A stretch of 64,000 nt of DNA from positions 60,512,001 to 60,576,000 of the forward strand of contig NC_135806.1 in NCBI RefSeq assembly GCF_964213995.1. The letters are read 5' to 3'. Position numbers and translations under genes: made by a program. This document shows positions 162 through 61,006 of the stretch, in pieces (the stretch's first letter is position 1; each line of letters opens with the position of its first letter). The notes under the pieces were generated by a model. That model made no database searches. It was given only the letters and a program-made list of their open reading frames with translations, and was not told the DNA's origin. The DNA is from Mustelus asterias. Lineage: Eukaryota.

Positions 162-455
162 TGATGCACCTCAATGAGCACCCGGAAACAAGGCTTTAGA
201 ACTGAAGGCTTTAATACATTAACAATGAAACTACTAACACAAATTCACCCGTTCAGACTGAAGGGGTCCTGCCGGAGCAGGGGGTCTTATACCCTGCCAC
301 CGGAGGCGGGACCCCACTGGAGTGTGCCATGATAACACTTAGGACAGGTAAACACCCTATCCCAACAACATAGTACAACCCCCATAACAACAACACCCTA
401 GCCCAACAGTAACACAATAACAACCCCAGTGGTGAACCAACGATGGTTCACCACA
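162..455 (-). repeat. 3' LTR of Gypsy copy 1
   Basis: 294 bp, direct repeat of 4588-4881; preceded on the element strand by the PPT AAAGGAGGGGTGAA (456-469). Confidence 0.97.
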
Positions 456-527
456 TTCACCCCTCCTTTAGGAACCAAAGGTGGCGGGGTGGATGAAAAC
501 AGACAATGACAAAAAAAATAACAGGAT

Positions 528-3500
528 TCACAAGTCCAGACGGTCTGGAGGACCACACCGACGCTGCGATCTTCTCAACACCGGTTGCGAAACCGGAGCA
601 GGTGCTTGCGGTGGCTCTCTCAAAACAACATCTGGCTGTCCCCTCAAAGACTCCTGGGCCGGCCGGCCCTGATGAGGCGATGGTGTAGGGGATCCTGGAA
701 CGTTTGGTGGTGGTGGTGGTGGTGATGATGGTGGCGCCGATCTCCGAGTCTCAGGCAAGCTGTACATGGGAGTAAAAGTGTTATGCACTGGTCCCGGTGC
801 TGACCGCGCCACGTCTGGGGAAGTAATGAGGAGTAGTGGATCTGTGACTGGGGGAATAGGAGCGACAGGAGTTGCTACGTCCCCTGCGGGCGCCAGGTCT
901 CTAATGGAGACAGTGTCCTCTCGCCCGTCAGGATATGCCACATAGGCATACTGAGGGTTGGCGTGGAGGAGTTGGACCGGTTCGACCAAGGGGTCGGACT
1001 TGCGAGCCCTCACATGGCGCCGCAGAAGGACGGGTCCTGGGTACGTCAACCAGGCTGGCAATGAGGTCCCCGAGGACGACTTCCGAGGGAATGAGAACAT
1101 CCTCTCGTGGGGAGTAGCATTGGTTGCCGTACACAGGAGGGAGCGGATAGAATGGAGCGCAGTTGGAAGGACCTCCTGCCACCGGGAGACTGGAAGGCCC
1201 TTGGATTTCAGTGCCAGTAGGACAGCCTTCCAGACTGTAGCATTCTCCCTTTCCACCTGTCCGTTACCCCTAGGGTTGTAGCTCGTGGTTCTACTAGAGG
1301 CAATCCCGAATGAGAGCAGGAATTGCCTCAAGTCGTTGCTCATGAACGACGAGCCCCTGTCGCTATGAATATAGCAGGGGTACCCGAACAGGGTAAAAAG
1401 CTCACTGAATGCCTTGATGACGGTGGCAGTCGACGTGTCCGCACAGGGGAAAACAAACGGAAACCGGGAAAATTCGTCTATTATGTTAAGAAAATAGACA
1501 TTCCGATCCGTTGAGGGAAGGGGGCCCTTAAAATCTACACTCAGCCTCTCAAAAGGGCGAGTGGCCTTGACCAAATGTGCCCGGTCTGGTCGATAAAAGT
1601 GTGGTTTGCATTCTGCGCAAATCCGACAACTTCTAGTAACTGACCTGACCTCCTCCACCGAGTAGGGTAGGTTGCGGGCTTTTATGAAGTGGTAGAGTCT
1701 GGTGACTCCAGGATGACACAGATCATTGTGGAGAGCCTTCAAGCGGTCCTCCTGCATGATGGCGCATGTTCCGCGCGAGAGGGCATCCGAGGGCTCATTG
1801 AGCTTCCCTGGACGATACATAATATCGTAATTATAGGTGGAGAGCTCAATTCTCCACCGCAAGATCTTATCGTTCTTGATCTTGCCCCTCTGCGTGTTAC
1901 TGAACATAAACGCCACGGATCGTTGATCCGTGATCAGGGTGAACCGCTTACCTGCCAGGTAATGGCGCCAGTGTCTGACTGCCTCCACAATGGCCTGAGC
2001 CTCCTTTTCCACCGCTGAGTGCTGAATCTCTGGGCCTTGAAGGGTGCGGGAAAAAAACGCGACGGGCCTGCCTGCCTGGTTTAGTGTGGCGGCTAGGGCG
2101 AAGTCCGATGCATCACTCTCCACCTGGAAAGGGATGGATTCATCCACCGCGTGCATCGTGGCTTTCGAGATGTCGCTTTTCAAAACCTTGAAGGCCAATT
2201 GGGCCTCCGGCGTAAGTGGGAAGGTCGTGGACTTAATGAGCGGACGAGCTTTGTCCGCGTAGTTGGGGACCCACTGTGCATAATACGAAAAGAACCCGAG
2301 GCATCTCCTCAGTGCTTTCGTGCTAGCGGGCAAGGGAAGTTCAGTGAGTGGGCGCATACAGTCTGGATCAGGGCCAATGACCCCGTTTTCCACCACGTAT
2401 CCGAGGATGGCTAACCTATGCGTACGGAATACGCACTTCTCCCTGTTATAGGTCAGATTCAGGCGAGATGCAGTGCGTAGAAAGTGTTGGAGATTCGTGT
2501 CGTGGTCCTGCTGGTCATGGCCGCAGATGGTGACGTTATCCAGGTACGGGAAGGTAGCCCGCAACCCGTTCTGGTCCACCATTCGGTCCATAGCACGCTG
2601 GAAGACCGAGACCCCATTGGTGACACCAAATGGAACCCTGAGGAATTGGTATAGACGACCATCCGCCTCAAAAGCCGTATATTGTCGGTCCTCTGGGCGG
2701 ATGGGGAGTTGATGGTAGGCGGACTTAAGGTCTATGGTAGAAAACACTCGGTACTGCGCAATCTGATTGACCATATCAGAAATGCGCGGGAGAGGATACG
2801 CATCCAGCTGCGTGTATCTATTAATGGTCTGACTATAGTCGATGACCATCCGAGGTTTGTTCCCGCTTTTGACTACCACGACCTGCGCTCTCCACGGACT
2901 AGCACTGGCCTGTATGATCCCTTCCTTGAGGAGCCGCTGAACCTCAGATCTAATAAAGATCCGGTCCTCAGCGCTGTAACGCCTACTTTTAGTAGCGATG
3001 GGCTTGCAGCCAGGTACCAGATTTTTAAAAAGGGATGGTGTCGTGATCTTCAGGGTGGATAGATTGCACGCGGGGCGCTTTGGGCAATTTGGAGGCTGCG
3101 GCTGGTTCCCTACTGCCAGTGAAGGGAGTGGCCCACCGTACTGTAGGATCACACTCCTCATGTGGGCCATAAAGTTTAGTCCGAGGAGAATTGGCGCGCA
3201 AAGGTGAGGTAGCACAAGGAGCCTGTATTGCTCGTAAACTGTGCCCTGTACCTCAAGAGTTACCATACATTGTCCTTGGATCGGTACAGACCGGGACTGT
3301 GATGCCATGGAAATTGTCTGTTTGGCAGGGAGAACCCGGAGTCCACACCTTTTAGCAGTTTCAGGGTGTATGAAACTTTCGGTGCTCCCACTGTCAAACA
3401 GACAATTCACAGTTCTGCCACTAACCTTTACCTCCATCATGGAATGTTCCAGTCTGTAATGCCTGGTCTGATCCAGAGAGATCGACGCCACCGTTGGCCC

Positions 3501-4565
3501 CTGGGCGTCACTGCATGCTGCCGATGTGGATGCTGAGGACCCCTGCTGGTCGCTGCTGCATGCTGCCGATGTGGATGCTGAGGACCCCTGCTGGTCGCTC
3601 CTAGTCGTCGTGGACCATGATGGCCGCCCCCATGAATCGCATGTGGCCGAGGGCTCCAAGCGCAGCGACTCCTGGTGGTCTTCCTCCTCCTCTGTCTGCC
3701 ACGATGGCGCCGTCCTGAGATCGCACGTGGTCGGACCTCGTGGGTACTGCAGCGCCGAAAGAGATGGTCTCCGTTCTGGAGGGTTACAAGCTGCACTGCC
3801 GTTTTTAGGTTTGGACCTGCAGACTTTGCCGTAGTGGCCTTTTTTACCGCACTGGCTGCAGATTGCCGTTCTTGCCGGACACTGTTGCCGTGGATGCTTG
3901 GCCCCACCGCAAAAATAGCATCGCTGGCCACCTGGAGCTGCCGCCGTCGTCGAATCGATCTGGGAGCGCGGGTTCGCGGGGCGAGGAGGGAGCAGAGCTT
4001 GCTCCAACCACGTTGACTGCACGTGGTCCTCGGGGTACAGCGCCAAGCTCTTCGACGCCGCCTCCAACCTCACGGCCATCCCCATTGCCTGGGTCAAGTT
4101 GAGTTTCCCCTTTTCTAATAATTTAAGTCTGATGTACGAGGACCCTACCCCTGCTACGAACGCGTCTCGGGCGAGGTCTTGCATGTACTGCTCGGCGGAG
4201 ACATCCTTACAGTCACAACCCCTGGCAAGCTGCAGGAGTTCATTGGCGTAGTCTTCTATGGTCTCGCCCGACTGCCGACGTCGTGTAGCGAGGAGATAAC
4301 GAGCGTGAATCTCGTTGGGTGGCGTAATGTACCTATTCTTTAGGAGCTCGACGGCACCCTGGTAAGTGGAAGCTGCACGAATGGCTAGGTAAATCGTGTC
4401 GCTTACCCTTGCGTGGAGGACCTGGAGTCTATCACTGTCTGTAGTGATAGCTACCGAGGCTGCCAGGTAGTCCTCGAAGCACTTCCACCAATGTTCGAAC
4501 GTGTTAGCTGCACCGACCGCACGTGGGTCCAGTGTCAGACGATCCGGTTTTAGGATCTGTTCCAT
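528..4565 (-). CDS. Gag-Pol polyprotein, 1345 aa from ATG (the ORF track extends upstream to a GTG inside the LTR)
   Basis: Two CCHC knuckles (CYFCGGAKHPRQQC, CSQCGKKGHYGKVC), protease LFDSGS, RT (IDLKSAYHQ, PFG, YLDN), RNase H (SDASD, EKEA, ITDQ), integrase HHCC and DDE (VDFKG, HSDRG, VEREN). Confidence 0.96.
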   Translation of the reverse strand: MEQILKPDRLTLDPRAVGAANTFEHWWKCFEDYLAASVAITTDSDRLQVLHARVSDTIYLAIRAASTYQGAVELLKNRYITPPNEIHARYLLATRRRQSGETIEDYANELLQLARGCDCKDVSAEQYMQDLARDAFVAGVGSSYIRLKLLEKGKLNLTQAMGMAVRLEAASKSLALYPEDHVQSTWLEQALLPPRPANPRSQIDSTTAAAPGGQRCYFCGGAKHPRQQCPARTAICSQCGKKGHYGKVCRSKPKNGSAACNPPERRPSLSALQYPRGPTTCDLRTAPSWQTEEEEDHQESLRLEPSATCDSWGRPSWSTTTRSDQQGSSASTSAACSSDQQGSSASTSAACSDAQGPTVASISLDQTRHYRLEHSMMEVKVSGRTVNCLFDSGSTESFIHPETAKRCGLRVLPAKQTISMASQSRSVPIQGQCMVTLEVQGTVYEQYRLLVLPHLCAPILLGLNFMAHMRSVILQYGGPLPSLAVGNQPQPPNCPKRPACNLSTLKITTPSLFKNLVPGCKPIATKSRRYSAEDRIFIRSEVQRLLKEGIIQASASPWRAQVVVVKSGNKPRMVIDYSQTINRYTQLDAYPLPRISDMVNQIAQYRVFSTIDLKSAYHQLPIRPEDRQYTAFEADGRLYQFLRVPFGVTNGVSVFQRAMDRMVDQNGLRATFPYLDNVTICGHDQQDHDTNLQHFLRTASRLNLTYNREKCVFRTHRLAILGYVVENGVIGPDPDCMRPLTELPLPASTKALRRCLGFFSYYAQWVPNYADKARPLIKSTTFPLTPEAQLAFKVLKSDISKATMHAVDESIPFQVESDASDFALAATLNQAGRPVAFFSRTLQGPEIQHSAVEKEAQAIVEAVRHWRHYLAGKRFTLITDQRSVAFMFSNTQRGKIKNDKILRWRIELSTYNYDIMYRPGKLNEPSDALSRGTCAIMQEDRLKALHNDLCHPGVTRLYHFIKARNLPYSVEEVRSVTRSCRICAECKPHFYRPDRAHLVKATRPFERLSVDFKGPLPSTDRNVYFLNIIDEFSRFPFVFPCADTSTATVIKAFSELFTLFGYPCYIHSDRGSSFMSNDLRQFLLSFGIASSRTTSYNPRGNGQVERENATVWKAVLLALKSKGLPVSRWQEVLPTALHSIRSLLCTATNATPHERMFSFPRKSSSGTSLPAWLTYPGPVLLRRHVRARKSDPLVEPVQLLHANPQYAYVAYPDGREDTVSIRDLAPAGDVATPVAPIPPVTDPLLLITSPDVARSAPGPVHNTFTPMYSLPETRRSAPPSSPPPPPPNVPGSPTPSPHQGRPAQESLRGQPDVVLREPPQAPAPVSQPVLRRSQRRCGPPDRLDL

Positions 4566-4587
4566 ATTCTCAGTTAATGTATTAAAT

Positions 4588-4881
4588 TGATGCACCTCAA
4601 TGAGCACCCGGAAACAAGGCTTTAGAACTGAAGGCTTTAATACATTAACAATGAAACTACTAACACAAATTCACCCGTTCAGACTGAAGGGGTCCTGCCG
4701 GAGCAGGGGGTCTTATACCCTGCCACCGGAGGCGGGACCCCACTGGAGTGTGCCATGATAACACTTAGGACAGGTAAACACCCTATCCCAACAACATAGT
4801 ACAACCCCCATAACAACAACACCCTAGCCCAACAGTAACACAATAACAACCCCAGTGGTGAACCAACGATGGTTCACCACA
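4588..4881 (-). repeat. 5' LTR of Gypsy copy 1
   Basis: 294 bp, direct repeat of 162-455. Confidence 0.97.
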
Positions 4882-13404: not shown

Positions 13405-15062
13405 TATAAATCAATGTATTCTAGTGGAAGCCAGTAGGGCAGGAAGGTGAGTGTTCGGGGCGATGATGGGTAAGTGGTGCTGAGAGATGTTGGAGGGGAC
13501 ACGGAAGTAGATGCAGATTTTGGGAGGTTGGCAGGTTAAGGGGGTGCTTGTCTGTTGTAATGGGGTGGGCTCTTTGGGAAGTTAGAGGGTGTGGACATTG
13601 ATTTGCATGGGGCTGATGGGAGCTGGTTGCAGGGTAACTGTGGGAAGGACAAATGTTACATCTGGGGCGTGGGGAGGTCAGTGGTTATGGGGGTGAGGGT
13701 ATGGGTCACAGGGCGATAGGTTAAGATATTTGACTGCATATCAAAGATACCAACAGTTATGGTCATTCACAACCAAGCAGAACCTCATGGTGGAGATCTC
13801 AAGATGCTGCATGGGAGTTGAGTCATCAGGAGTGGGTGAAGATGCAGATCAGCCTCAACTGGACAACTGAAGGACAACTCTGCTATGTAGCAGCTACACT
13901 GCCAGGGCATTGGGACAGGTGAGCGTGTGAAAGGCAAAGACTCACTGGGTGCAGAGACTTCTTGCAGTTGGTTCACAGTGGCCTTGGCAAATACCTTTAC
14001 CTCCATGCACATGCCTGAATCTGGGGCACATAGACCCAGCATGGGGTGTTCCTTGGAAGATGTTGTGGGGATGGGGTGATACCCTCAGAGAGTCCTGTAT
14101 GGAGGTCACATGTGTGTCCAACAGCCATGATTCCTCCCTTTGGGTGTCCAAGCGTCCTTGCCCAAGGGAAAAGAACACCTGGAGGGAGGCTGAGGTGTCC
14201 TCACCTCCCCTCCCAATTAACCGCTGCAATATCTCACCCATGACTACAGCGATGGAATTGAGGTCTGTGCACATATCCGGCAGAAACTGGATGTTCTGCT
14301 GAACTAGGTTCTCCACGACATCAGCCACCTTCCCCGTGGAGACCGCAATGTGTGGCGGTTCTTCAGAAAGCAGATGTAGGGACTCTTCCACCTCACGTGC
14401 CGCTCTGGTGAGGGTCTCGGACACCCCAGCCTGATGTTCCTCTGCCTCTTGCAGCTCCAACATCTCATGCAGGGCCCATCTCTGAGGCTCATCATCTGAT
14501 TGGATGTTGCTGATGCCTCTTCCTCAGGAGTCCTCCGAGTGAGCTTGGCTGACCTTGCCTCCTCCGGCTGAAATGACCACCAAAATGTGAGGAACTGTCA
14601 GGAACTGTGAGGAACTAGATCGAGTACCCACAGAGGTGCGTGTCTCTGTGCTGGTGGAGGGTGCAGGTGATTGCTGTGATGTCTCTACAGGTGAACGTTC
14701 TTCCTCCTCCTCAATGTCCTGGGTGCTCTGTGGGCTGGAGGAACTGCTGGACAGAGGCTTCCTCTTCTTCCCTCCCCTCTTCCTGCTGGCACCTGTAAGT
14801 GAAAGAGGAGACAGCGAGTGACTGCATGAGCTGCCTCCAAAATGGAGGAATAGATGATTCTTAGGTTTCTATGTGACTACATTATGAATGGATCCTTACT
14901 AGATGGAAGCTGCCCACTGACCTCTCCATCACTGCAGGCTCGGTCTGGTTCCTCACCAGCCAGCTGCTCCTTGAATTCAGAGATGTTCTGGAAGTCAGGC
15001 CGGCCCCCTCCTGTCTTCCCTCCCACTCTCAACTTTTCCTGTGCAATAAGAGAAGATGGGGT

Positions 15063-15232
15063 TGATAGAGATAGATAGAGATAGATAGATTGAGATTGAT
15101 AGAGATAGATCGAGATAGATAGAGATAGATCGGGGAATACAGATAGTTAGATAGAGGTAGATAGAGATACATCGAGATAGATAGGTAGAGGTAGATAGAT
15201 AGAGATAGATAGTTCGAGATAGAGATAGATAG
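15063..15232 (+). repeat. Compound (GATA/GAGATA)n microsatellite
   Basis: Directly visible. Confidence 0.95.
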
Positions 15233-16710
15233 TCCCAGATTCAATGACTCATCCCACAAAGTGCTGCTCAAAGCTTTCTCATGTTCCCAGTCTTACAAAT
15301 AACCCACTGGATTGTGTGTCATGTGATCAATACACTACAGGTTGTCCACAAGCGATCTGGGGCAGCACCCTCCAGAGCATGGAGCCCATGCAGATAGAAG
15401 GATAAGGCTCACAGAAGTATGTCATTAGCAGTGCGTGGTGGTGCCCTCAGTACTTAACCATATCCCCCCACCCGCCACACCTCCACACCTCCCAGCCAGC
15501 ATCTGAGCTCTCTGTGTGGAAGGATCAGGGACCACAGTGGCCTCTCCGCCTGCAGACTAGGTGGATGCAGTGGGGCTATGAGGCATCGCATGAGTGGCTC
15601 TTTTATTCTTGGTGTGCATGGATGGTGTCCTTTCCACTGAGGCTCCTGTCCCCTGTACCATTCAGTGGGGTGAGTGGGAGCAGTTGAAGGTTCACTTACT
15701 CTGGCAGAGCAAATGAGGTCATTCATCCATCAGTTTGCGACATTGCAGTGCCATTGGGTGGTGGAGGCCGTGGGCAGTGACCATCCTGGAGATTTCCTCC
15801 CATGTCGGGTTAGTCTAATGGCTCACCCTCCTCCTTCTATCAGCTGGGTAGAGGGCGCCCCTCCCGGCCTCCACTGCTTTGAGCAGCACTTTGTGGGATG
15901 AGTCATTGAATCTGGGGGCCGAGGTCCCTGTGATTGACAGATCATCTCCTCCTTCAATAGTGGGTAAGTTGATATTTGGGCACCTTTTCAATATGGCGCC
16001 AGGATATGATGCTCGGTTGTGTGCCATCCAACTCGGCCCACCGCGTAATGTGTCAGTAAATCCCCAGCTGCATCATTAATTCGGCCAGCATCATGTGATC
16101 CAGTACAAATTCCCACCAGCCTCCGCGGCAGGAAAACTTCCGGTTCCTGCCCCCACCACAGGATTTAATCTCAGAATGGGAAAGTTCTGCCTATAATTAT
16201 CACAAACCTTACAACAGGGACCATTAATGACCAAAAGGTTGTTTATGTTGAGTGAATTCCAGCAACCTCCCCCCCAGACTCTGATGCAATATGCAGCTGC
16301 ACAGAAGGCAGGGAGCTACAGATATATCACCAGTGGTACTGGCACCTACCCAGGGCACATAAATGAGATGTCTTCCCTTCAACCTGCAAATTCCTGCTGT
16401 GTGAAGACCAACTGTCCGTGACAGAGGTCATCAGCTGCTGTGTGCCAGCTGTTACACCAGATGGACATCCTATCAGGTTTTGCTCTCACATAGCTCTCAT
16501 ATAACAACATACTCTTAAAAATCCAGACTTTTAAATCCAGAGTTTACTTTGTTTCATCATATTTTCTGGTCACATATTTGGCAAGAGCCCCCAATGAATT
16601 TAGTTGAGTCAACTTGTAGTTTTAAACTTCGGCTACAATGACTCATGGGAAGAAGTTTTTGAAGTCACTCTACCAATTCCGTTGCTAGCCTCTATTTAAA
16701 ATAAAAACCT

Positions 16711-36853: not shown

Positions 36854-37220
36854 CGGGAGAGGCAATGCCGTAGTGGTATTGTCACTAGATGAGAATCCAG
36901 CGATCCAGGGTAATGCTCTGGGGACCTAGGTTCGAATCCCACCATGGCAGATGGTGAAATTAGAATTCAATAAAAATCTGGAATTAAAGGTCTAACAATG
37001 ACCGTGAAACCATTGTCAATTGTCAGAAAAGCCCTTCTAATTCACTAATGTCGTTTAGGGAAGGAAATCTGTCATCCTTACCTGGTTTAGCCCACTTGTG
37101 ACTCCAGACCCACATCAACATGGTTGACTCTCAGATGCCCTCTGAAATGGAGGGCAAGAAGGGATGGGCAACGAATGCTGGGCCCAGCCAATGATGCCCA
37201 CATCCCATAAGATGAATAAA
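36854..37220 (+). mobile_element. tRNA-headed SINE family B
   Basis: A-box-like TGCCGTAGTGG and B-box GGTTCGAATCC; tail GGGATGGGCAA..ATGCTGG..GATGCCCACATCCC..GAATAAA matches the LINE B tail. Confidence 0.85.
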
Positions 37221-37379
37221 TGGATTGCATTTTTGTGGTGAACCATCGTTGGTTCACCACTGGGGTTGTTATTGTGTTACTGTTGGGCTAGGGTGTTGTT
37301 GTTATGGGGGTTGTACTATGTTGTTGGGATAGGGTGTTTACCTGTCCTAAGTGTTATCATGGCACACTCCAGTGGGGTC

Positions 37380-37432
37380 CCGCCTCCGGTGGCAGGGTAT
37401 AAGACCCCCTGCTCCGGCAGGACCCCTTCAGT
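37380..37432 (+). promoter_or_regulatory. Putative LTR core promoter
   Basis: GC box CCCGCC near 37380, TATAAG at 37398-37403, Inr-like TCAGT about 30 nt downstream; ATTAAA at 37474-37479. Confidence 0.6.
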
Positions 37433-37549
37433 CTGAACGGGTGAATTTGTGTTAGTAGTTTCATTGTTAATGTATTAAAGCCTTCAGTTCTAAAGCCTTG
37501 TTTCCGGGTGCTCATTGAGGTGCATCAATTTAATACATTAACTGAGAAT

Positions 37550-40500
37550 ATGGAACAGATCCTAAAACCGGATCGTCTGACACTGGACCCACGTGCGGTC
37601 GGTGCAGCTAACACGTTCGAACATTGGTGGAAGTGCTTCGAGGACTACCTGGCAGCCTCGGTAGCTATCACTACAGACAGTGATAGACTCCAGGTCCTCC
37701 ACGCAAGGGTAAGCGACACGATTTACCTAGCCATTCGTGCAGCTTCCACTTACCAGGGTGCCGTCGAGCTCCTAAAGAATAGGTACATTACGCCACCCAA
37801 CGAGATTCACGCTCGTTATCTCCTCGCTACACGACGTCGGCAGTCGGGCGAGACCATAGAAGACTACGCCAATGAACTCCTGCAGCTTGCCAGGGGTTGT
37901 GACTGTAAGGATGTCTCCGCCGAGCAGTACATGCAAGACCTCGCCCGAGACGCGTTCGTAGCAGGGGTAGGGTCCTCGTACATCAGACTTAAATTATTAG
38001 AAAAGGGGAAACTCAACTTGACCCAGGCAATGGGGATGGCCGTGAGGTTGGAGGCGGCGTCGAAGAGCTTGGCGCTGTACCCCGAGGACCACGTGCAGTC
38101 AACGTGGTTGGAGCAAGCTCTGCTCCCTCCTCGCCCCGCGAACCCGCGCTCCCAGATCGATTCGACGACGGCGGCAGCTCCAGGTGGCCAGCGATGCTAT
38201 TTTTGCGGTGAGGCCAAGCATCCACGGCAAGAGTGTCCGGCAAGAACGGCAATCTGCAGCCAGTGCGGTAAAAAAGGCCACTACGGCAAAGTCTGCAGGT
38301 CCAAACCTAAAAACGGCAGTGCAGCTTGTAACCCTCCAGAACGGAGACAATCTCCTTCGGCGTCGCAGTACCCACGAGGTCCGACCACGTGCGATCTCAG
38401 GACGGCGCCATCGTGGCAGACAGAGGAGGAGGAAGACCACCAGGAGTCGCTGCGCTTGGAGCCCTCGGCCACATGCGATTCATGGGGGCGGCCATCATGG
38501 TCCACGACGACTAGGAGCGACCAGCAGGGGTCCTCAGCATCCACATCGGCAGCATGCAGCAGCGACCAGCAGGGGTCCTCAGCATCCACATCGGCAGCAT
38601 GCAGTGACGCCCAGGGGCCAACGGTGGCGTCGATCTCTCTGGATCAGACCAGGCATTACAGACTGGAACATTCCATGATGGAGGTAAAGGTTAGTGGCAG
38701 AACTGTAAATTGTCTGTTTGACAGTGGGAGCACCGAAAGTTTCATACACCCTGAAACTGCTAAAAGGTGTGGACTCCGGGTTCTCCCTGCCAAACAGACA
38801 ATTTCCATGGCATCACAGTCCCGGTCTGTACCGATCCAAGGACAATGTATGGTAACTCTTGAGGTACAGGGCACAGTTTACGAGCAATACAGGCTCCTTG
38901 TGTTACCTCACCTTTGCGCGCCAATTCTCCTCGGACTAAACTTTATGGCCCACATGAGGAGTGTGATCCTACAGTACGGTGGGCCACTCCCTTCACTGGC
39001 AGTAGGGAACCAGCCGCAGCCTCCAAATTGCCCAAAGCGCCCCGCGTGCAATCTATCCACCCTGAAGATCACGACACCATCCCTTTTTAAAAATCTGGTA
39101 CCTGGCTGCAAGCCCATCGCTACTAAAAGTAGGCGTTACAGCGCTGAGGACCGGATCTTTATTAGATCTGAGGTTCAGCGGCTCCTCAAGGAAGGGATCA
39201 TACAGGCCAGTGCTAGTCCGTGGAGAGCGCAGGTCGTGGTAGTCAAAAGCGGGAACAAACCTCGGATGGTCATCGACTATAGTCAGACCATTAATAGATA
39301 CACGCAGCTGGATGCGTATCCTCTCCCGCGCATTTCTGATATGGTCAATCAGATTGCGCAGTACCGAGTGTTTTCTACCATAGACCTTAAGTCCGCCTAC
39401 CATCAACTCCCCATCCGCCCAGAGGACCGACAATATACGGCTTTTGAGGCGGATGGTCGTCTATACCAATTCCTCAGGGTTCCATTTGGTGTCACCAATG
39501 GGGTCTCGGTCTTCCAGCGTGCTATGGACCGAATGGTGGACCAGAACGGGTTGCGGGCTACCTTCCCGTACCTGGATAACGTCACCATCTGCGGCCATGA
39601 CCAGCAGGACCACGACACGAATCTCCAACACTTTCTACGCACTGCATCTCGCCTGAATCTGACCTATAACAGGGAGAAGTGCGTATTCCGTACGCATAGG
39701 TTAGCCATCCTCGGATACGTGGTGGAAAACGGGGTCATTGGCCCTGATCCAGACCGTATGCGCCCACTCACTGAACTTCCCTTGCCCGCTAGCACGAAAG
39801 CACTGAGGAGATGCCTCGGGTTCTTTTCGTATTATGCACAGTGGGTCCCCAACTACGCGGACAAAGCTCGTCCGCTCATTAAGTCCACGACCTTCCCACT
39901 TACGCCGGAGGCCCAATTGGCCTTCAAGGTTTTGAAAAGCGACATCTCGAAAGCCACGATGCACGCGGTGGATGAATCCATCCCTTTCCAGGTGGAGAGT
40001 GATGCATCGGACTTCGCCCTAGCCGCCACACTAAACCAGGCAGGCAGGCCCGTCGCGTTTTTTTCCCGCACCCTTCAAGGCCCAGAGATTCGGCACTCAG
40101 CGGTGGAAAAGGAGGCTCAGGCCATTGTGGAGGCAGTCAGACACTGGCGCCATTACCTGGCAGGTAAGCGGTTCACCCTGATCACGGATCAACGATCCGT
40201 GGCGTTTATGTTCAGTAACACGCAGAGGGGCAAGATCAAGAACGATAAGATCTTGCGGTGGAGAATTGAGCTCTCCACCTATAATTACGATATTATGTAT
40301 CGTCCAGGGAAGCTCAATGAGCCCTCGGATGCCCTCTCGCGCGGAACATGCGCCATCATGCAGGAGGACCGCTTGAAGGCTCTCCACAATGATCTGTGTC
40401 ATCCTGGAGTCACCAGACTCTACCACTTCATAAAAGCCCGCAACCTACCCTACTCGGTGGAGGAGGTCAGGTCAGTTACTAGAAGTTGTCGGATTTGCGC

Positions 40501-41587
40501 AGAATGCAAACCACACTTTTATCGACCAGACCGGGCACATTTGGTCAAGGCCACTCGCCCTTTTGAGAGGCTGAGTGTAGATTTTAAGGGCCCCCTTCCC
40601 TCAACGGATCGGAATGTCTATTTTCTTAACATAATAGACGAATTTTCCCGGTTTCCGTTTGTTTTCCCCTGTGCGGACACGTCGACTGCCACCGTCATCA
40701 AGGCATTCAGTGAGCTTTTTACCCTGTTCGGGTACCCCTGCTATATTCATAGCGACAGGGGCTCGTCGTTCATGAGCAACGACTTGAGGCAATTCCTGCT
40801 CTCATTCGGGATTGCCTCTAGTAGAACCACGAGCTACAACCCTAGGGGTAACGGACAGGTGGAAAGGGAGAATGCTACAGTCTGGAAGGCTGTCCTACTG
40901 GCACTGAAATCCAAGGGCCTTCCAGTCTCCCGGTGGCAGGAGGTCCTTCCAACTGCGCTCCATTCTATCCGCTCCCTCCTGTGTACGGCAACCAATGCTA
41001 CTCCCCACGAGAGGATGTTCTCATTCCCTCGGAAGTCGTCCTCGGGGACCTCATTGCCAGCCTGGTTGACGTACCCAGGACCCGTCCTTCTGCGGCGCCA
41101 TGTGAGGGCTCGCAAGTCCGACCCCTTGGTCGAACCGGTCCAACTCCTCCACGCCAACCCTCAGTATGCCTATGTGGCATATCCTGACGGGCGAGAGGAC
41201 ACTGTCTCCATTAGAGACCTGGCGCCCGCAGGGGACGTAGCAACTCCTGTCGCTCCTATTCCCCCAGTCACAGATCCACTACTCCTCATTACTTCCCCAG
41301 ACGTGGCGCGGTCAGCACCGGGACCAGTGCATAACACTTTTACTCCCATGTACAGCTTGCCTGAGACTCGGAGATCGGCGCCACCATCATCACCACCACC
41401 ACCACCACCAAACGTTCCAGGATCCCCTACACCATCGCCTCATCAGGGCCGGCCGGCCCGGGAGTCTTTGAGGGGACAGCCAGATGTTGTTTTGAGAGAG
41501 CCACCGCAAGCACCTGCTCCGGTTTCGCAACCGGTGTTGAGAAGATCGCAGCGTCGGTGTGGTCCTCCAGACCGTCTGGACTTGTGA
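37550..41587 (+). CDS. Gag-Pol polyprotein, 1345 aa
   Basis: Same domains as copy 1; 8 amino-acid differences seen. Confidence 0.96.
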   Translation: MEQILKPDRLTLDPRAVGAANTFEHWWKCFEDYLAASVAITTDSDRLQVLHARVSDTIYLAIRAASTYQGAVELLKNRYITPPNEIHARYLLATRRRQSGETIEDYANELLQLARGCDCKDVSAEQYMQDLARDAFVAGVGSSYIRLKLLEKGKLNLTQAMGMAVRLEAASKSLALYPEDHVQSTWLEQALLPPRPANPRSQIDSTTAAAPGGQRCYFCGEAKHPRQECPARTAICSQCGKKGHYGKVCRSKPKNGSAACNPPERRQSPSASQYPRGPTTCDLRTAPSWQTEEEEDHQESLRLEPSATCDSWGRPSWSTTTRSDQQGSSASTSAACSSDQQGSSASTSAACSDAQGPTVASISLDQTRHYRLEHSMMEVKVSGRTVNCLFDSGSTESFIHPETAKRCGLRVLPAKQTISMASQSRSVPIQGQCMVTLEVQGTVYEQYRLLVLPHLCAPILLGLNFMAHMRSVILQYGGPLPSLAVGNQPQPPNCPKRPACNLSTLKITTPSLFKNLVPGCKPIATKSRRYSAEDRIFIRSEVQRLLKEGIIQASASPWRAQVVVVKSGNKPRMVIDYSQTINRYTQLDAYPLPRISDMVNQIAQYRVFSTIDLKSAYHQLPIRPEDRQYTAFEADGRLYQFLRVPFGVTNGVSVFQRAMDRMVDQNGLRATFPYLDNVTICGHDQQDHDTNLQHFLRTASRLNLTYNREKCVFRTHRLAILGYVVENGVIGPDPDRMRPLTELPLPASTKALRRCLGFFSYYAQWVPNYADKARPLIKSTTFPLTPEAQLAFKVLKSDISKATMHAVDESIPFQVESDASDFALAATLNQAGRPVAFFSRTLQGPEIRHSAVEKEAQAIVEAVRHWRHYLAGKRFTLITDQRSVAFMFSNTQRGKIKNDKILRWRIELSTYNYDIMYRPGKLNEPSDALSRGTCAIMQEDRLKALHNDLCHPGVTRLYHFIKARNLPYSVEEVRSVTRSCRICAECKPHFYRPDRAHLVKATRPFERLSVDFKGPLPSTDRNVYFLNIIDEFSRFPFVFPCADTSTATVIKAFSELFTLFGYPCYIHSDRGSSFMSNDLRQFLLSFGIASSRTTSYNPRGNGQVERENATVWKAVLLALKSKGLPVSRWQEVLPTALHSIRSLLCTATNATPHERMFSFPRKSSSGTSLPAWLTYPGPVLLRRHVRARKSDPLVEPVQLLHANPQYAYVAYPDGREDTVSIRDLAPAGDVATPVAPIPPVTDPLLLITSPDVARSAPGPVHNTFTPMYSLPETRRSAPPSSPPPPPPNVPGSPTPSPHQGRPARESLRGQPDVVLREPPQAPAPVSQPVLRRSQRRCGPPDRLDL

Positions 41588-41992
41588 ATCCTGTTATTTT
41601 TTTTGTCATTGTCTGTTTTCATCCACCCCGCCACCTTTGGTTCCTAAAGGAGGGGTGAATGTGGTGAACCATCGTTGGTTCACCACTGGGGTTGTTATTG
41701 TGTTACTGTTGGGCTAGGGTGTTGTTGTTATGGGGGTTGTACTATGTTGTTGGGATAGGGTGTTTACCTGTCCTAAGTGTTATCATGGCACACTCCAGTG
41801 GGGTCCCGCCTCCGGTGGCAGGGTATAAGACCCCCTGCTCCGGCAGGACCCCTTCAGTCTGAACGGGTGAATTTGTGTTAGTAGTTTCATTGTTAATGTA
41901 TTAAGGCCTTCAGTTCTAAAGCCTTGTTTCCGGGTGCTCATTGAGGTGCATCAATTTTCTATGTCCTAAACAAATCAAACTCATAGTTAAAT

Positions 41993-51630: not shown

Positions 51631-54181
51631 GTTGTTAGGAGTTTACTATAAGACCCCAAATAGTAATAGAGATGTGGAGGAAGAAATTGCTAAGCAGATT
51701 ATGGATAGGCGTGGGGGTCACAGGGTAGTTGTCATGGGGGACTTTAACTTTCCAAATATTGACTGGAATCTTTGTAGGTCGAATAGTTCGGATGGGGCAG
51801 TTTTTGTGCAGTGTGGGCAGGAGGGTTTCCTGATACAATATGTGGATAGGCCAACAAGAGGTGGGGCCACATTGGATTTGGTACTGGGAAATGAACCGGG
51901 CCAAGTGTTAGATTTGGTTGTGGGAGAGCATTTTGGAGATAGTGACCACAATTCGGTGTCTTTTGTTATTGCAATGGAGAGGGATAGGGCCGTATGGCAG
52001 GGCAAGGTTTATAATTGGGGGAGAGGTAATTATGATGCCATTAGGCAAGAATTAGGGGGCATAAGATGGGAACAGAAGCTGTCAGGGAAAGGCACTAATG
52101 AAAAGTGGAACTTTTTCAAGGAACAAATACTGTGTGTCCTTGATAGGTATGTCCCTGTCAGGCAGGGAGGAAATGGCCGAGTGAGGGAACCATGGTTCAC
52201 AAAAGAGGTGGAATGTCTTGCAAAAAGGAAGAGGGAAGCTTATGTAGAGATGAGGAAACAAGGTTCAGATGGCTCGATTGAGGGTTACAAGTTAGCAAGG
52301 AATGAGCTGAAAAAGGGGCTTCAGAGAGCTAGGAGGGGGCATGAGAAGTCCTTGGCGGGTCGGATCAAGGAAAACCCCAAGGCTTTTTACGCTTATGTGA
52401 GGAATAAAAGAATGACCAGGGTGAGGTTAGGGCCGGTCAAGGACAGTAGTGGGAACTTGTGTATGGAGTCAGTAGAGATAGGAGAGGTGATGAATGAATA
52501 CTTTTCTTCAGTGTTCACCAAGGAGAGGGGCCATGTTTTTGAGGAAGAGAAGGTGTTACAGACTAATAGGCTGGAGGAAGTAGATGTTCGGAGGGAGGAT
52601 GTACTAGCAGTTTTGAATAAACTGAAGGTTGATAAGTCCCCTGGGCCTGATGAAATATATCCTAGGATTCTTTGGGAGGCAAGGGATGAGATTGCAGAGC
52701 CTTTGGCTTTGATCTTTGGGTCCTCACTGTCCAGGTGATGGTGCCAGAGGACTGGAGAGTGGCGAATATTGTTCCTCTGTTTAAGAAAGGGAATAGAAAT
52801 GACCCTAGTAATTATAGGCCGGTTAGTCTTAAATCGGTGGTTGGTAAGTTGATGGAAAAGGTCCTTCGGGATGGGATTTACGACCATTTAGAAAGATGTG
52901 GATTAATCCAGGATAGTCAGCACGGATTTGTGAAGGGCAAGTCGTGCCTCACAAATTTGATAGAATTTTTTGAGGAGGTAACTAAGTGTGTTGATGAAGG
53001 TAGGACAGTTGATGTCATATACATGGATTTTAGTAAGGCGTTTGATAAGGTCCCCCATGGTCGGCTTATGATGAAAGTAAGGAGGTGTGGGATAGAGGGA
53101 AAGTTGGCCGATTGGATAAGTAACTGGCTATCTGATCGAAGGCAGAGGGTGGTGGTGGATGGAAAATTTTCGGACTGGAGGCAGGTTGCTAGCGGAGTGC
53201 CATAGGGATCAGTGCTTGGTCCTCTGCTCTTTGTGATTTTTATTAATGACTTAGAGGAGGGGGCTGAAGCGTGGATCAGTAAATTTGCTGATGACACCAA
53301 GATTGGTGGAGTAGTGGATGAGGTGGAGGGCTGCTGTAGACTGCAAAGAGACATAGATAGGATGCAAAGCTGGGCTGAAAAATGGCAGATGGAGTTTAAC
53401 CCTGATAAATGTGAGGTGATTCATTTTGGTAGGACAAATTTAAATGTGGATTACAGGGTCAAAGGTAGGGTTCTGAAGACTGTGGAGGAACAGAGAGATC
53501 TTGGGGTCCATATCCACAGATCTCTGAAGGTTGCCACTCAAGTGGATAGAGCTGTGAAGAAGGCCTATAGTGTGTTAGCTTTTATTAACAGGGGGTTGGA
53601 GTTTAAGAGCCGTGGGGTTATGCTGCAACTGTACAGGACCTTGGTGAGACCACATTTGGAATATTGTGTGTAGTTCTGGTCACCTCACTATAAGGATGTG
53701 GAAGCACTGGAAAGAGTGCAAAGGAGATTTACCAGGATGCTGCCTGGTTTGGAGGGTAGATCTTATGAGGAAAGGTTTGAGGGAGCTGGGGCTGTTCTCT
53801 CTGGAGCGGAGGAGGTTGAGGGGAGACTTAATAGAGGTTTATAAAATGATGAAGGGGATAGATAGAGTGAACGTTCAAAGACTATTTCCTCGGGTGGATG
53901 GAGCTATTACAAGGGGGCATAACTATAGGGTTCATGATGGGAGATATAGGAAGGATGTCCGAGGTAGGTTCTTTACTCAGAGAGTGGTTGGGGTGTGGAA
54001 TGGACTGCCTGCAGTGATAGTGGAGTCAGACACTTTAGGAACATTTAAGCGGTTATTGGATAGGCACATGGAGCACACCAGGATGATAGGGAGTGGGATA
54101 GCTTGTTCTTGGTTTCAGATAAAGCTCGGCACAACATCGTGGGCCGAAGGGCCTGTTCTGTGCTGTACTGTTCTATGTTCT
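51631..54181 (+). mobile_element. CR1 (HER1-like) LINE, 5'-truncated, ORF2 pseudogenised
   Basis: Endonuclease (MGDFNFP, LDLVL, SDHN) and RT (NYRPVSL, YMDFSKAFDKV, KFADD) with a few stops and frameshifts; (TTCTATG)n tail. Confidence 0.95.
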
Positions 54182-55183
54182 AAAGAGTTGCTGCAAATGT
54201 TCTTTAAAAAAGAGAAGAGAACAGAATGCACTGAGGGACTGCAGGCAGCGAGGTTCCAAAGTTTTTATAAGTGGAGAAGACTTCAACCTGTTTAAAACAA
54301 AGTTAAAGTTAGAAAGTTTTCAAAAATGGCCCCTTGGTCCTCGAGAGTGCTGGATCTGCCAGTGAAAGTGACAAAGGAAATAATTGCACATCAAAAGGAA
54401 GAGAGGAGCAAACTGTTCAAATGGCCAGAGAAGAAAAAAGCTACAGAGCTCGCTGAGAGAGCTTTACATTAGTAAAAAGAAGTGAGGCTTTAAAACTTTA
54501 AAGAAGGTTCAAAGAAGGAGCAGCAGGTTTGCGCCAAACTTCAAAAGCGCAGGAAAACACCGAGAACCAGCAGCTGCTGACAGCAGTAAAAATTGATTAC
54601 ACTCTTAAAGAGGTAATGCATTTAAAGTGGTAATACATTTCATGTGGCAATGAATTTAAAGCAATAACCACAAGCAGAAACCAAGGACAGTGGACAGCAA
54701 AAGTGGAGAAGAACCTGAATAGAGGGCAACTCTCAAAAAAGATCCTTAAGCAACAAAGCCCTCAAGGAAGAGGCAACAGAAGACCTCAGAGGAGGCAATA
54801 GATGACCCCAGAAGGAAAGCACTAGTAGATCCCATAAGGATGGCACTGAAAGGCCCCATAGAGAGGGCACTGATAGACCCAGAAAGAGGGAACTGAAAGA
54901 CCCCAAAAGGAGGACAATGATGAAATACCCCAGAAGAAGGACAACAAAAGGCAATGAACGACCAAATAAAGGGCAATGAGAGAATTGCAGAATGGAAACA
55001 AGTCAACACTTCGTTGGAGACAGACTTGACCATCAGTGAAGCAAAAAGGGTTTGCTGAAGCTAAGACAAGTAGAAATGAAAATTCCATTTGTGAAATGTA
55101 AATGTCGAGTCATAACATGATGGGTTAACCTCAGAAGAAACACAGAAATTAACGACTTCAAAAGAAACCGGGAACCATTGAAC

Positions 55184-55444
55184 ACAGCCTGTGTGGAGTT
55201 TGCACTGCTTGTGTGGAGTTTGCACTGTCTGTGTGGAGTTTACACTGTCTGTGTGGAGTTTGCACTGCCTGTGTGGAGTTTGCACTGCCTGTGTGGAGTT
55301 TGCACTGCCTGTGTGGAGTTTGCACTGCCTGTGTGGAGTTTGCACTGCCTGTGTGGAGTTTGCACTGCCTGTGTGGAGTTTGCACTGTCTGTGTGGAGTT
55401 TGCACTGCCTGTGTGGAGTTTGCACTGCCTGTGTGGAGTTTGCA
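55184..55444 (+). repeat. 20-bp minisatellite, 13 copies, derived from V-SINE sequence
   Basis: (GTGTGGAGTTTGCACTG(C/T)CT)n runs directly into the SINE body. Confidence 0.95.
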
Positions 55445-55577
55445 TGTTCTCAGTGTAGGTTCCCTCTGGGAGCTTCGGTTTCCTCCCACAGTGCAGAGAT
55501 GTGTAGGGTAAGTTGATTGGCCACGCTGAATTGCCCCTTAGTGTCATGGGGACTAGCAGGGTAAATACATGGGATTA

Positions 55578-60690: not shown

Positions 60691-61006
60691 TTTCAAAGAC
60701 TATTTCCTCGGGTGGATGGAGCTATTACAAGGGGGCATAACTATAGGGTTCGTGGTGGGAGATATAGGAAGGATATCAGAGGTAGGTTCTTTACGCAGAG
60801 AGTGGTTGGGGTGTGGAATGGACTGCCTGCAGTGATAGTGGAGTCAGACACTTTAGGAACATTTAAGCGGTTATTGGATAGGCACATGGAGCACACCAGG
60901 ATGATAGGGAGTGGGATAGCTTGATCTTGGTTTCAGATAAAGCTCGGCACAACATTGTGGGCCGAAGGGCCTGTTCTGTGCTGTATTGTTCTATGTTCTA
61001 TGTTCT
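60691..61006 (+). mobile_element. CR1 3' fragment
   Basis: Nearly identical to 53874-54181. Confidence 0.92.

Follow-up and report, generated by a model that had tools for sequence, protein, structure and literature searches.

How does a retrotransposon whose 5' LTR is not followed by a recognizable tRNA-binding site prime its reverse transcription? The question is raised by a 64,000-nt stretch of the Mustelus asterias genome (contig NC_135806.1, positions 60,512,001 to 60,576,000; hereafter the window), which carries two near-identical, full-length copies of one element (162-4881 and 37234-41953), 32 kb apart, in opposite orientation and with separate target-site duplications (TSDs). The few bases between the LTR and the gag start codon are complementary to a segment of the element's own LTR, and we asked what this complementarity is for.

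The element and its primer-binding position

The TG..CA LTRs, the TSD, the polypurine tract, and the order of protease, then reverse transcriptase (RT), then RNase H, then integrase identify the element as a Ty3/Gypsy LTR retrotransposon. Its parts in the window are as follows.

37234-37527, plus strand: 5' LTR of copy 2, 294 bp, TG..CA, with the 5-bp TSD just before it (37229-37233)
37550-41587, plus strand: single ORF of 1345 amino acids (Gag, protease, RT, RNase H, and integrase, in that order)
41646-41655, plus strand: polypurine tract
41660-41953, plus strand: 3' LTR of copy 2, 294 bp, TG..CA, followed by the TSD
162-4881, minus strand: copy 1 of the same element, with the primer-binding position at 4573-4586 and the paired segment at 4636-4649

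Copy 1 has its own TSD and differs from copy 2 by 0.25%, and the two LTRs of copy 2 have a single mismatch, located in the poly(A) hexamer, where the 3' LTR carries the variant. The element is young and abundant, its LTR-gag junction recurring in 402 exact copies across the genome, and its family has clearly been active recently. The best solved relative of the ORF is Ty3 Gag-Pol (187 bits), to which the four acidic active-site residues of RNase H align. Two CCHC knuckles are present in Gag, at residues 216 and 236. The first-pass annotation, which was made from the sequence by itself, had seen no evident chromodomain, and indeed none of 26 family proteins matched a chromodomain or an SH3_Tf2-1 module at E 0.05. 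The same annotation had considered the element to look Mag-like. A double CCHC motif is a feature of Mag elements, and the two knuckles together with the lack of a chromodomain would fit that lineage. The SH3_Tf2-1 matches found in this genome (L347-L357) lie in old, broken elements with a retrovirus-like pol layout.

Among the homologues listed, the nearest named ones come from rays and catsharks (74-85%), with more distant relatives (54-68%) in cnidarians, a sea cucumber, a tunicate, spiders, nematodes, and a fluke; no clade name is given for any of the 240 homologues listed. No relative was found in IMG/VR, and a motif search of the available parts of the supplements to PMC6238403 and PMC2774666 returned no comparable sequences. 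The active-site motif of RT reads YLDN rather than YXDD (39569-39580; ORF residues 674-677), and the position of its asparagine is occupied by Asn in 89 and by Asp in 30 of the 120 homologues listed. The LTR start (37235-37260) forms a perfect 11-bp inverted repeat with a 4-nt loop, at which several copies have deletions. Other repeats in the window include a 20-nt tandem array (55143-55521), a GATA-rich array (15030-15254), and a pair of 300-nt sequences without a pol match (53874-54173 and 60692-60991). This pair resembles LINE 3' ends rather than LTRs.

The features around the junction of LTR and gag, several of which are predictions, are listed below.

37398-37403, plus strand: TATA-like box TATAAG, by motif
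37428-37432, plus strand: initiator-like TCAGT, by motif, with the predicted transcript start near 37430
37466-37479, plus strand: paired segment, the predicted 3' part of a self-primer, with the predicted cut after 37479
37474-37479, plus strand: ATTAAA hexamer, forming the end of the paired segment
37480-37523, plus strand: predicted second stem, which begins at the base right after the segment; ~37480-37488 closes with 37514-37523
37524-37528, plus strand: end of the LTR and one-base spacer, unpaired in the predicted fold; the putative first template bases for the primer
37529-37542, plus strand: primer-binding position, complement of 37466-37479

The first-pass annotation had described 37529-37542 as the exact reverse complement of 37466-37479, placed 1 nt from the LTR edge, with only 22 nt between the LTR end and the gag ATG, no TGG-type tRNA site, and the same arrangement in copy 1. 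All of this was borne out. The match is a perfect 14 bp; base 37528 is the sole spacer, and the site is followed by seven bases and the ATG at 37550; the 22 nt contain no TGG; and 4573-4586 in copy 1 is identical. The annotation had also extended the stem by 5 bp past a 2-nt bulge. This extension can be drawn with one G-U pair, but its letters differ in a sister subfamily (B, described below), and we left it uncounted because it is not conserved there. From base composition, the chance of finding such a 14-mer anywhere in the LTR is ~1e-6.

No TGG lies next to the LTR end in register in the host loci, and the TGG at 37551 is ruled out as a tRNA site, being within the ORF and 23 nt past the LTR end. 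When compared with 27 distinct host tRNA genes, a sample that covers only 7 anticodons, the primer-binding position showed pairing of at most 7 nt, and no Rfam match was present within 37100-37800 at E 1.

Covariation of the site with its LTR segment

A search for variant sites returned 48 places, of which 47 share one different site and the remaining one (L319) has a single change. The 47 places form subfamily B, which diverges overall by 2.6-2.9% from the window copy (type A). In subfamily B, 4 of the 14 positions differ in both segment and site, and all four differences are compensated. A matching 5' LTR segment is present in 46 of the 47 copies with a B site, the 47th being the recombinant L323 considered below. 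By independent change, a four-pair switch has a probability of ~1e-12 if the overall rate is assumed, or of 1e-6 with the local rate; it calls for strong selection or for the primer being copied into the site. No intermediate was found at the four searched positions except the single, uncompensated change of L319, and no copy with the primer-binding position alone converted was found among the copies examined. L405 carries an uncompensated segment change in both LTRs and L365 one in its 5' LTR, and these two copies count against a strict need for perfect pairing.

Three further observations concern the two subfamilies. In the predicted R region, A and B differ at 9 of 33 positions (37441-37473), with ~2% difference in the ORF and 0-2 of 48 positions in U5, which reflects either an imported block or fast change. 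Linkage within subfamily B is uninformative, because all four allele combinations occur on both sides of 37463. Four copies (L300, L339, L382, and L411) have matching TSDs and LTR pairs that are discordant at sites where the family is polymorphic, which suggests heteroduplex or two-parent plus-strand products.

For more distant comparisons, the Gag N termini of four relatives were used as queries on the host genome, which, with the focal copies added, yielded 177 loci that fall into 11 clusters. Upstream of Gag, the longest inverted repeat of each locus was then recorded without bias, and repeats of at least 10 bp were counted. Such a repeat is present in 143 of the 177 loci, or in 141 of 174 after three repeated places are dropped, and in 134 of these 141 distinct places its start lies one base past a CA. 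With the focal family set aside, the repeat was found in 82 of 114 host places (75 of them one base after CA), and the pairing is present in all 11 clusters. Likewise, a metagenome set of 80 loci, reduced to 45 with a Gag start and to 44 with enough upstream sequence, contains a repeat of at least 10 bp in 36 of the 44, with the same one-base register in 29; several of these loci share assemblies and hence are not all independent. Shuffled controls reached 10 bp in 9 of 450 cases and never in register. For part of the metagenome loci (e.g., L180, L184, L188, L203, L208, L217, L218, and L223), the LTR ends were confirmed by both LTRs. Most of the 8 loci below 10 bp look degenerate or truncated. 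L193 is an exception and has no self-complementary site in the 118 nt of sequence available upstream of Gag.

We also compared 34 representatives (14 host and 20 metagenome). Since these were picked among stem-bearing and mutually related copies, statistics over them are overstated; with that bias, the stem begins one base after the CA of the LTR in 34 of 34, and stem positions 4-11 vary on both sides. Pairing of one family's site with another family's segment averages 6.8 of 11 positions and is perfect in only 6 of 1122 combinations. Moreover, the genomic A's of the segment are matched by T's in the site, number for number. The first-pass annotation had suggested looking for compensatory change among relatives, and such change is found at three depths: between sister subfamilies, among host families, and in distant metagenome relatives. 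The complementarity is real and conserved, and the position is very probably a primer site.

Natural break points, predicted mechanism, and alternatives

Two genomic copies preserve breaks at the predicted cut. The first, L323, has matching TSDs and two identical LTRs. These LTRs are A-type at 15 of 15 diagnostic sites in U3, R, and the segment (37274-37473) and B-type at 37490 and 37518, and in the internal region the primer-binding position and 5' gag are B-type and the remainder is A-type. The crossover interval, 37474-37489, brackets the predicted cut between 37479 and 37480, and the 3' donor supplied the nine diagnostic sites located from the predicted start to the cut. This mosaic is what would be expected from a particle holding one A and one B RNA, in which strong-stop DNA was made on B, jumped to the 3' end of A, and later switched back. 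It fits a self-priming cut because an outside primer would normally be extended to the cap near 37430, adding the nine B sites, although a premature jump could produce the same pattern. The survey for recombinants covered 48 + 5 + 56 places plus 60 earlier loci, and no U3/R crossover was seen among 91 exact matches to the B-type R stretch and 56 further A copies. L391 is A-type except at 37518, where both LTRs carry the B allele; either it is a second recombinant that crossed over 3' of the predicted cut, or the change arose by parallel mutation.

The second, L372, is one of the 56 further A places and consists of a lone fragment that is 100% identical to 37479-37813, with no other element sequence within 8 kb. 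Its start can be placed within 37479-37485, where it joins a piece of a multicopy host gene inside another repeat through 6 nt of microhomology (37479-37484). The composite (L372:179-680) comprises ~103 nt of the host gene from a splice-acceptor-like site, 335 nt of the element, and 57 nt of the gene reversed. Reverse transcription running off the 5' end of an RNA that began at the cut, with a subsequent template switch, would leave such a fragment, but the break could also have been placed by the microhomology alone; we estimate the chance of a break in that 7-nt window within the LTR at ~2%. Both mapping events are single, with one case each.

That the element primes itself in some form is, on this sequence evidence, very likely. 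For the form, we favor, with a probability of roughly 70%, Tf1-like self-priming in cis in which the RNA is cut internally, directly behind the poly(A) hexamer and ~50 nt from the predicted transcript start. The transcript would start near 37430, as the promoter motifs suggest, and 37466-37479 would fold onto 37529-37542, a partner that is present only behind the 5' LTR, so that the 5' poly(A) signal would be hidden as well. The RNA would then be cut between 37479 and 37480, by analogy with Tf1 probably by the element's own RNase H, and the new 3' end would be extended over the spacer and the LTR end, yielding minus strong-stop DNA that ends at 37480. The first jump would use the short stretch from 37480 to the poly(A) site, and new LTRs would receive U3 and the segment from the 3' LTR. 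In addition, plus-strand copying of the attached primer may rewrite the primer-binding position and thus keep both sides matched. Internal cleavage had been one of several modes offered by the first-pass annotation, and it is supported as the best fit among them, because the site keeps a fixed register to the LTR end, the A's of the segment match T's in the site, and two events map to the segment's 3' end. Two points weigh against parts of this scheme. If the primer carries a 36-nt unpaired 5' leader, plus strong-stop DNA would be left with an unpaired tail, and for copying of the primer into the site there is no direct case, with L319, L405, and L365 all uncompensated.

The predicted fold of 37400-37600 has z = -3.61, and 0 of 200 shuffles were equally stable. 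Directly 3' of the segment, RCCT is present in 29 of 34 representatives. The first four bases of the second stem have a predicted pairing of 0.77, compared with 0.38 in shuffled loops, and are higher in 29 of 33, whereas a cruder test of ungapped runs gave no excess of this stem over shuffles. The equivalents of the unpaired stretch 37524-37528 across families are no less paired than in shuffles.

A closer copy of the Tf1 geometry is one alternative, in which ~37466 is the 5' end of the packaged RNA, whether by initiation or by trimming, and the primer is the 14-nt segment only. The covariation and both mapping events fit it equally well, it would leave no unpaired tail on plus strong-stop DNA, alternative start sites are described for Tf2 in the accessible part of PMC5341516, and one metagenome relative (L225) has a TATA 31 nt upstream of the segment. 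The promoter motifs of the host families argue against it. The first-pass annotation had placed the segment ~36 nt past a predicted TATA/initiator start and ending in ATTAAA; we confirmed the motifs and the hexamer, and the start itself stays a prediction. In the 14 host representatives, a TATA lies 67-72 nt upstream of the segment in 11, an initiator-like TCAGT lies 35-41 nt upstream in 12, and a TATA at 25-35 nt occurs in none; among metagenome relatives, no promoter motif is conserved. Because the TATA and initiator place the start upstream of the segment, we predict a primer of ~50 nt with a 14-nt paired 3' end and consider the shorter one unlikely.

Priming in trans is rated slightly lower still. 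Here the segment would come from a second molecule, which might be the partner genome, the 3' R region of that genome, or a short transcript of an LTR, cut or ending after the hexamer. Solo LTRs and the 3' R region contain the segment's sequence too, so that identical covariation would be expected, and U5 alleles reassort with U3 haplotypes, from which we infer that particles with two different RNAs occur. However, the intramolecular fold is strongly favored, with a predicted pairing probability of 0.99 for the segment in cis, and the conserved second stem begins at the very next base. If a 3' end trimmed from poly(A) served as the primer, the one-for-one match of genomic A's and T's would be needless, and strong-stop DNA could copy the 5' segment, unlike what is seen in L323.

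It is improbable that the duplex serves only to mask the poly(A) signal of the 5' LTR, or to regulate translation or packaging, with a host RNA fragment or another route doing the priming. The first-pass annotation had proposed masking, and as a side function in host families it is probable: AATAAA or ATTAAA forms the end of the segment in 14 of 14 host representatives and in 11 of 20 from metagenomes, the fold would by itself bring masking about because the partner sequence exists only behind the 5' LTR, and the predicted pairing of the hexamer is 0.96-1.0 in the 5' context versus ~0.4-0.7 in the 3' context (copy 2, variant hexamer). As a sole function it is insufficient, because the duplex is kept without either hexamer in 9 of the 20 metagenome representatives, two of which have a hexamer in the loop; moreover, masking does not require the fixed one-base register. 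A host RNA as the primer is unlikely, because no TGG stands beside the LTR end, pairing with the sampled tRNAs (27 genes, 7 anticodons) does not exceed 7 nt, and the sites change with the LTR, such that a host RNA could not track dozens of site sequences or the four-base switch between A and B. This covariation with the LTR also speaks against a primer that pairs through an internal tRNA segment, as in half-tRNA-primed elements.

Comparison with known systems and implications

Self-priming through an internal cut in cis has its closest counterpart in Tf1, whose primer consists of the first 11 bases of its RNA, released by RNase H, as stated in the available part of PMC7175516. A three-duplex structure is needed by Tf1 and is common to Tf1/sushi chromoviruses, according to the accessible portions of PMC10085805 and PMC4600332. 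In what these three sources make available, Tf1/Tf2 of Schizosaccharomyces pombe, Tj1, Tosmo1-3, Tcry1, and the Tf1/sushi group lack a tRNA site, as does the element studied here, and the Tf1/sushi site pairs with 11-19 nt in the 5' LTR of the same element, compared with 14 nt here. Both also have a second duplex beside the central one, a CA at the LTR end just before the site, and an RT-RNase H (PMC7175516, PMC10085805, PMC4600332, in the same portions). However, the present element differs from Tf1/sushi in several respects. It has no chromodomain or SH3_Tf2-1 module (0 of 26) and has two CCHC knuckles; the predicted position of its segment is 35-41 nt into the transcript rather than at the 5' end; and in host families the segment ends in a poly(A) hexamer. 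The equivalent of the third, "pretzel" duplex is no better than in shuffles, at 4.3 nt versus 4.5 nt. The element thus appears, from its sequence features, to work like Tf1 but to lack two defining marks of Tf1/sushi, the chromodomain and the third duplex.

Other systems share fewer features. Self-priming has been predicted for moss Tcn1 chromoviruses and for the plant Ty1/copia TAR lineage (Houba, Osr-1) in the accessible text of PMC6317226. The definition used in that text, a site 0-5 nt behind the LTR that complements at least 10 bp of the 5' LTR, describes the present element too. TAR and Tcn1 belong to another superfamily or clade and to other hosts, and covariation and natural break points are added here. 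Fungal GalEa copia elements, with their Conserved Hairpin Site, and bivalve TRIMs have no tRNA site and a conserved structure in its place (PMC5445492 and PMC6934838, as far as their available parts go). That hairpin lies inside the internal region and its letters are conserved, whereas the present element has its pairing partner inside the LTR, with letters that are free to vary. Hairpin priming has also been proposed as the ancestral state that preceded tRNA priming (accessible part of PMC3601003). The likeness to the Mag lineage and to other animal non-chromovirus Gypsy clades (Cigr-1, MolGy) lies in the animal hosts, the short LTRs, and the lack of a chromodomain. In the full-text literature searched, which most subscription papers lie outside, self-priming in an animal non-chromovirus Gypsy lineage is not described. 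Repbase entries reportedly mention self-priming for some animal Gypsy families.

Self-priming as such is already known from Tf1/sushi, and the present case is a variant of it in another animal Gypsy lineage. New here are the switch of four base pairs between the young subfamilies A and B and the break points that two natural copies show at the predicted cut. We tentatively propose a broader reading, namely that a widespread, non-chromovirus Gypsy lineage of animals evolved self-priming on its own terms: one duplex would hide the 5' poly(A) signal and mark the internal cut, a capped primer of ~50 nt would be copied back into the site, the letters would be free to change, and no host tRNA would be needed.

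The available literature ties self-priming to Tf1/sushi chromoviruses, with a prediction for one plant Copia lineage. If our interpretation is true, the primer need not be the first bases of the RNA, and priming and control of 5' polyadenylation can share one duplex. Self-primed elements would escape targeting by tRNA fragments, and pipelines that demand a tRNA site miss such elements. Moreover, the coexistence of two young subfamilies lets the end point of strong-stop DNA be read from natural genetic variation. The close RT relatives of this element are found in rays, sharks, cnidarians, a sea cucumber, a tunicate, spiders, and parasitic worms, and if self-priming holds for this second large Gypsy lineage, the mechanism would be common in animals.
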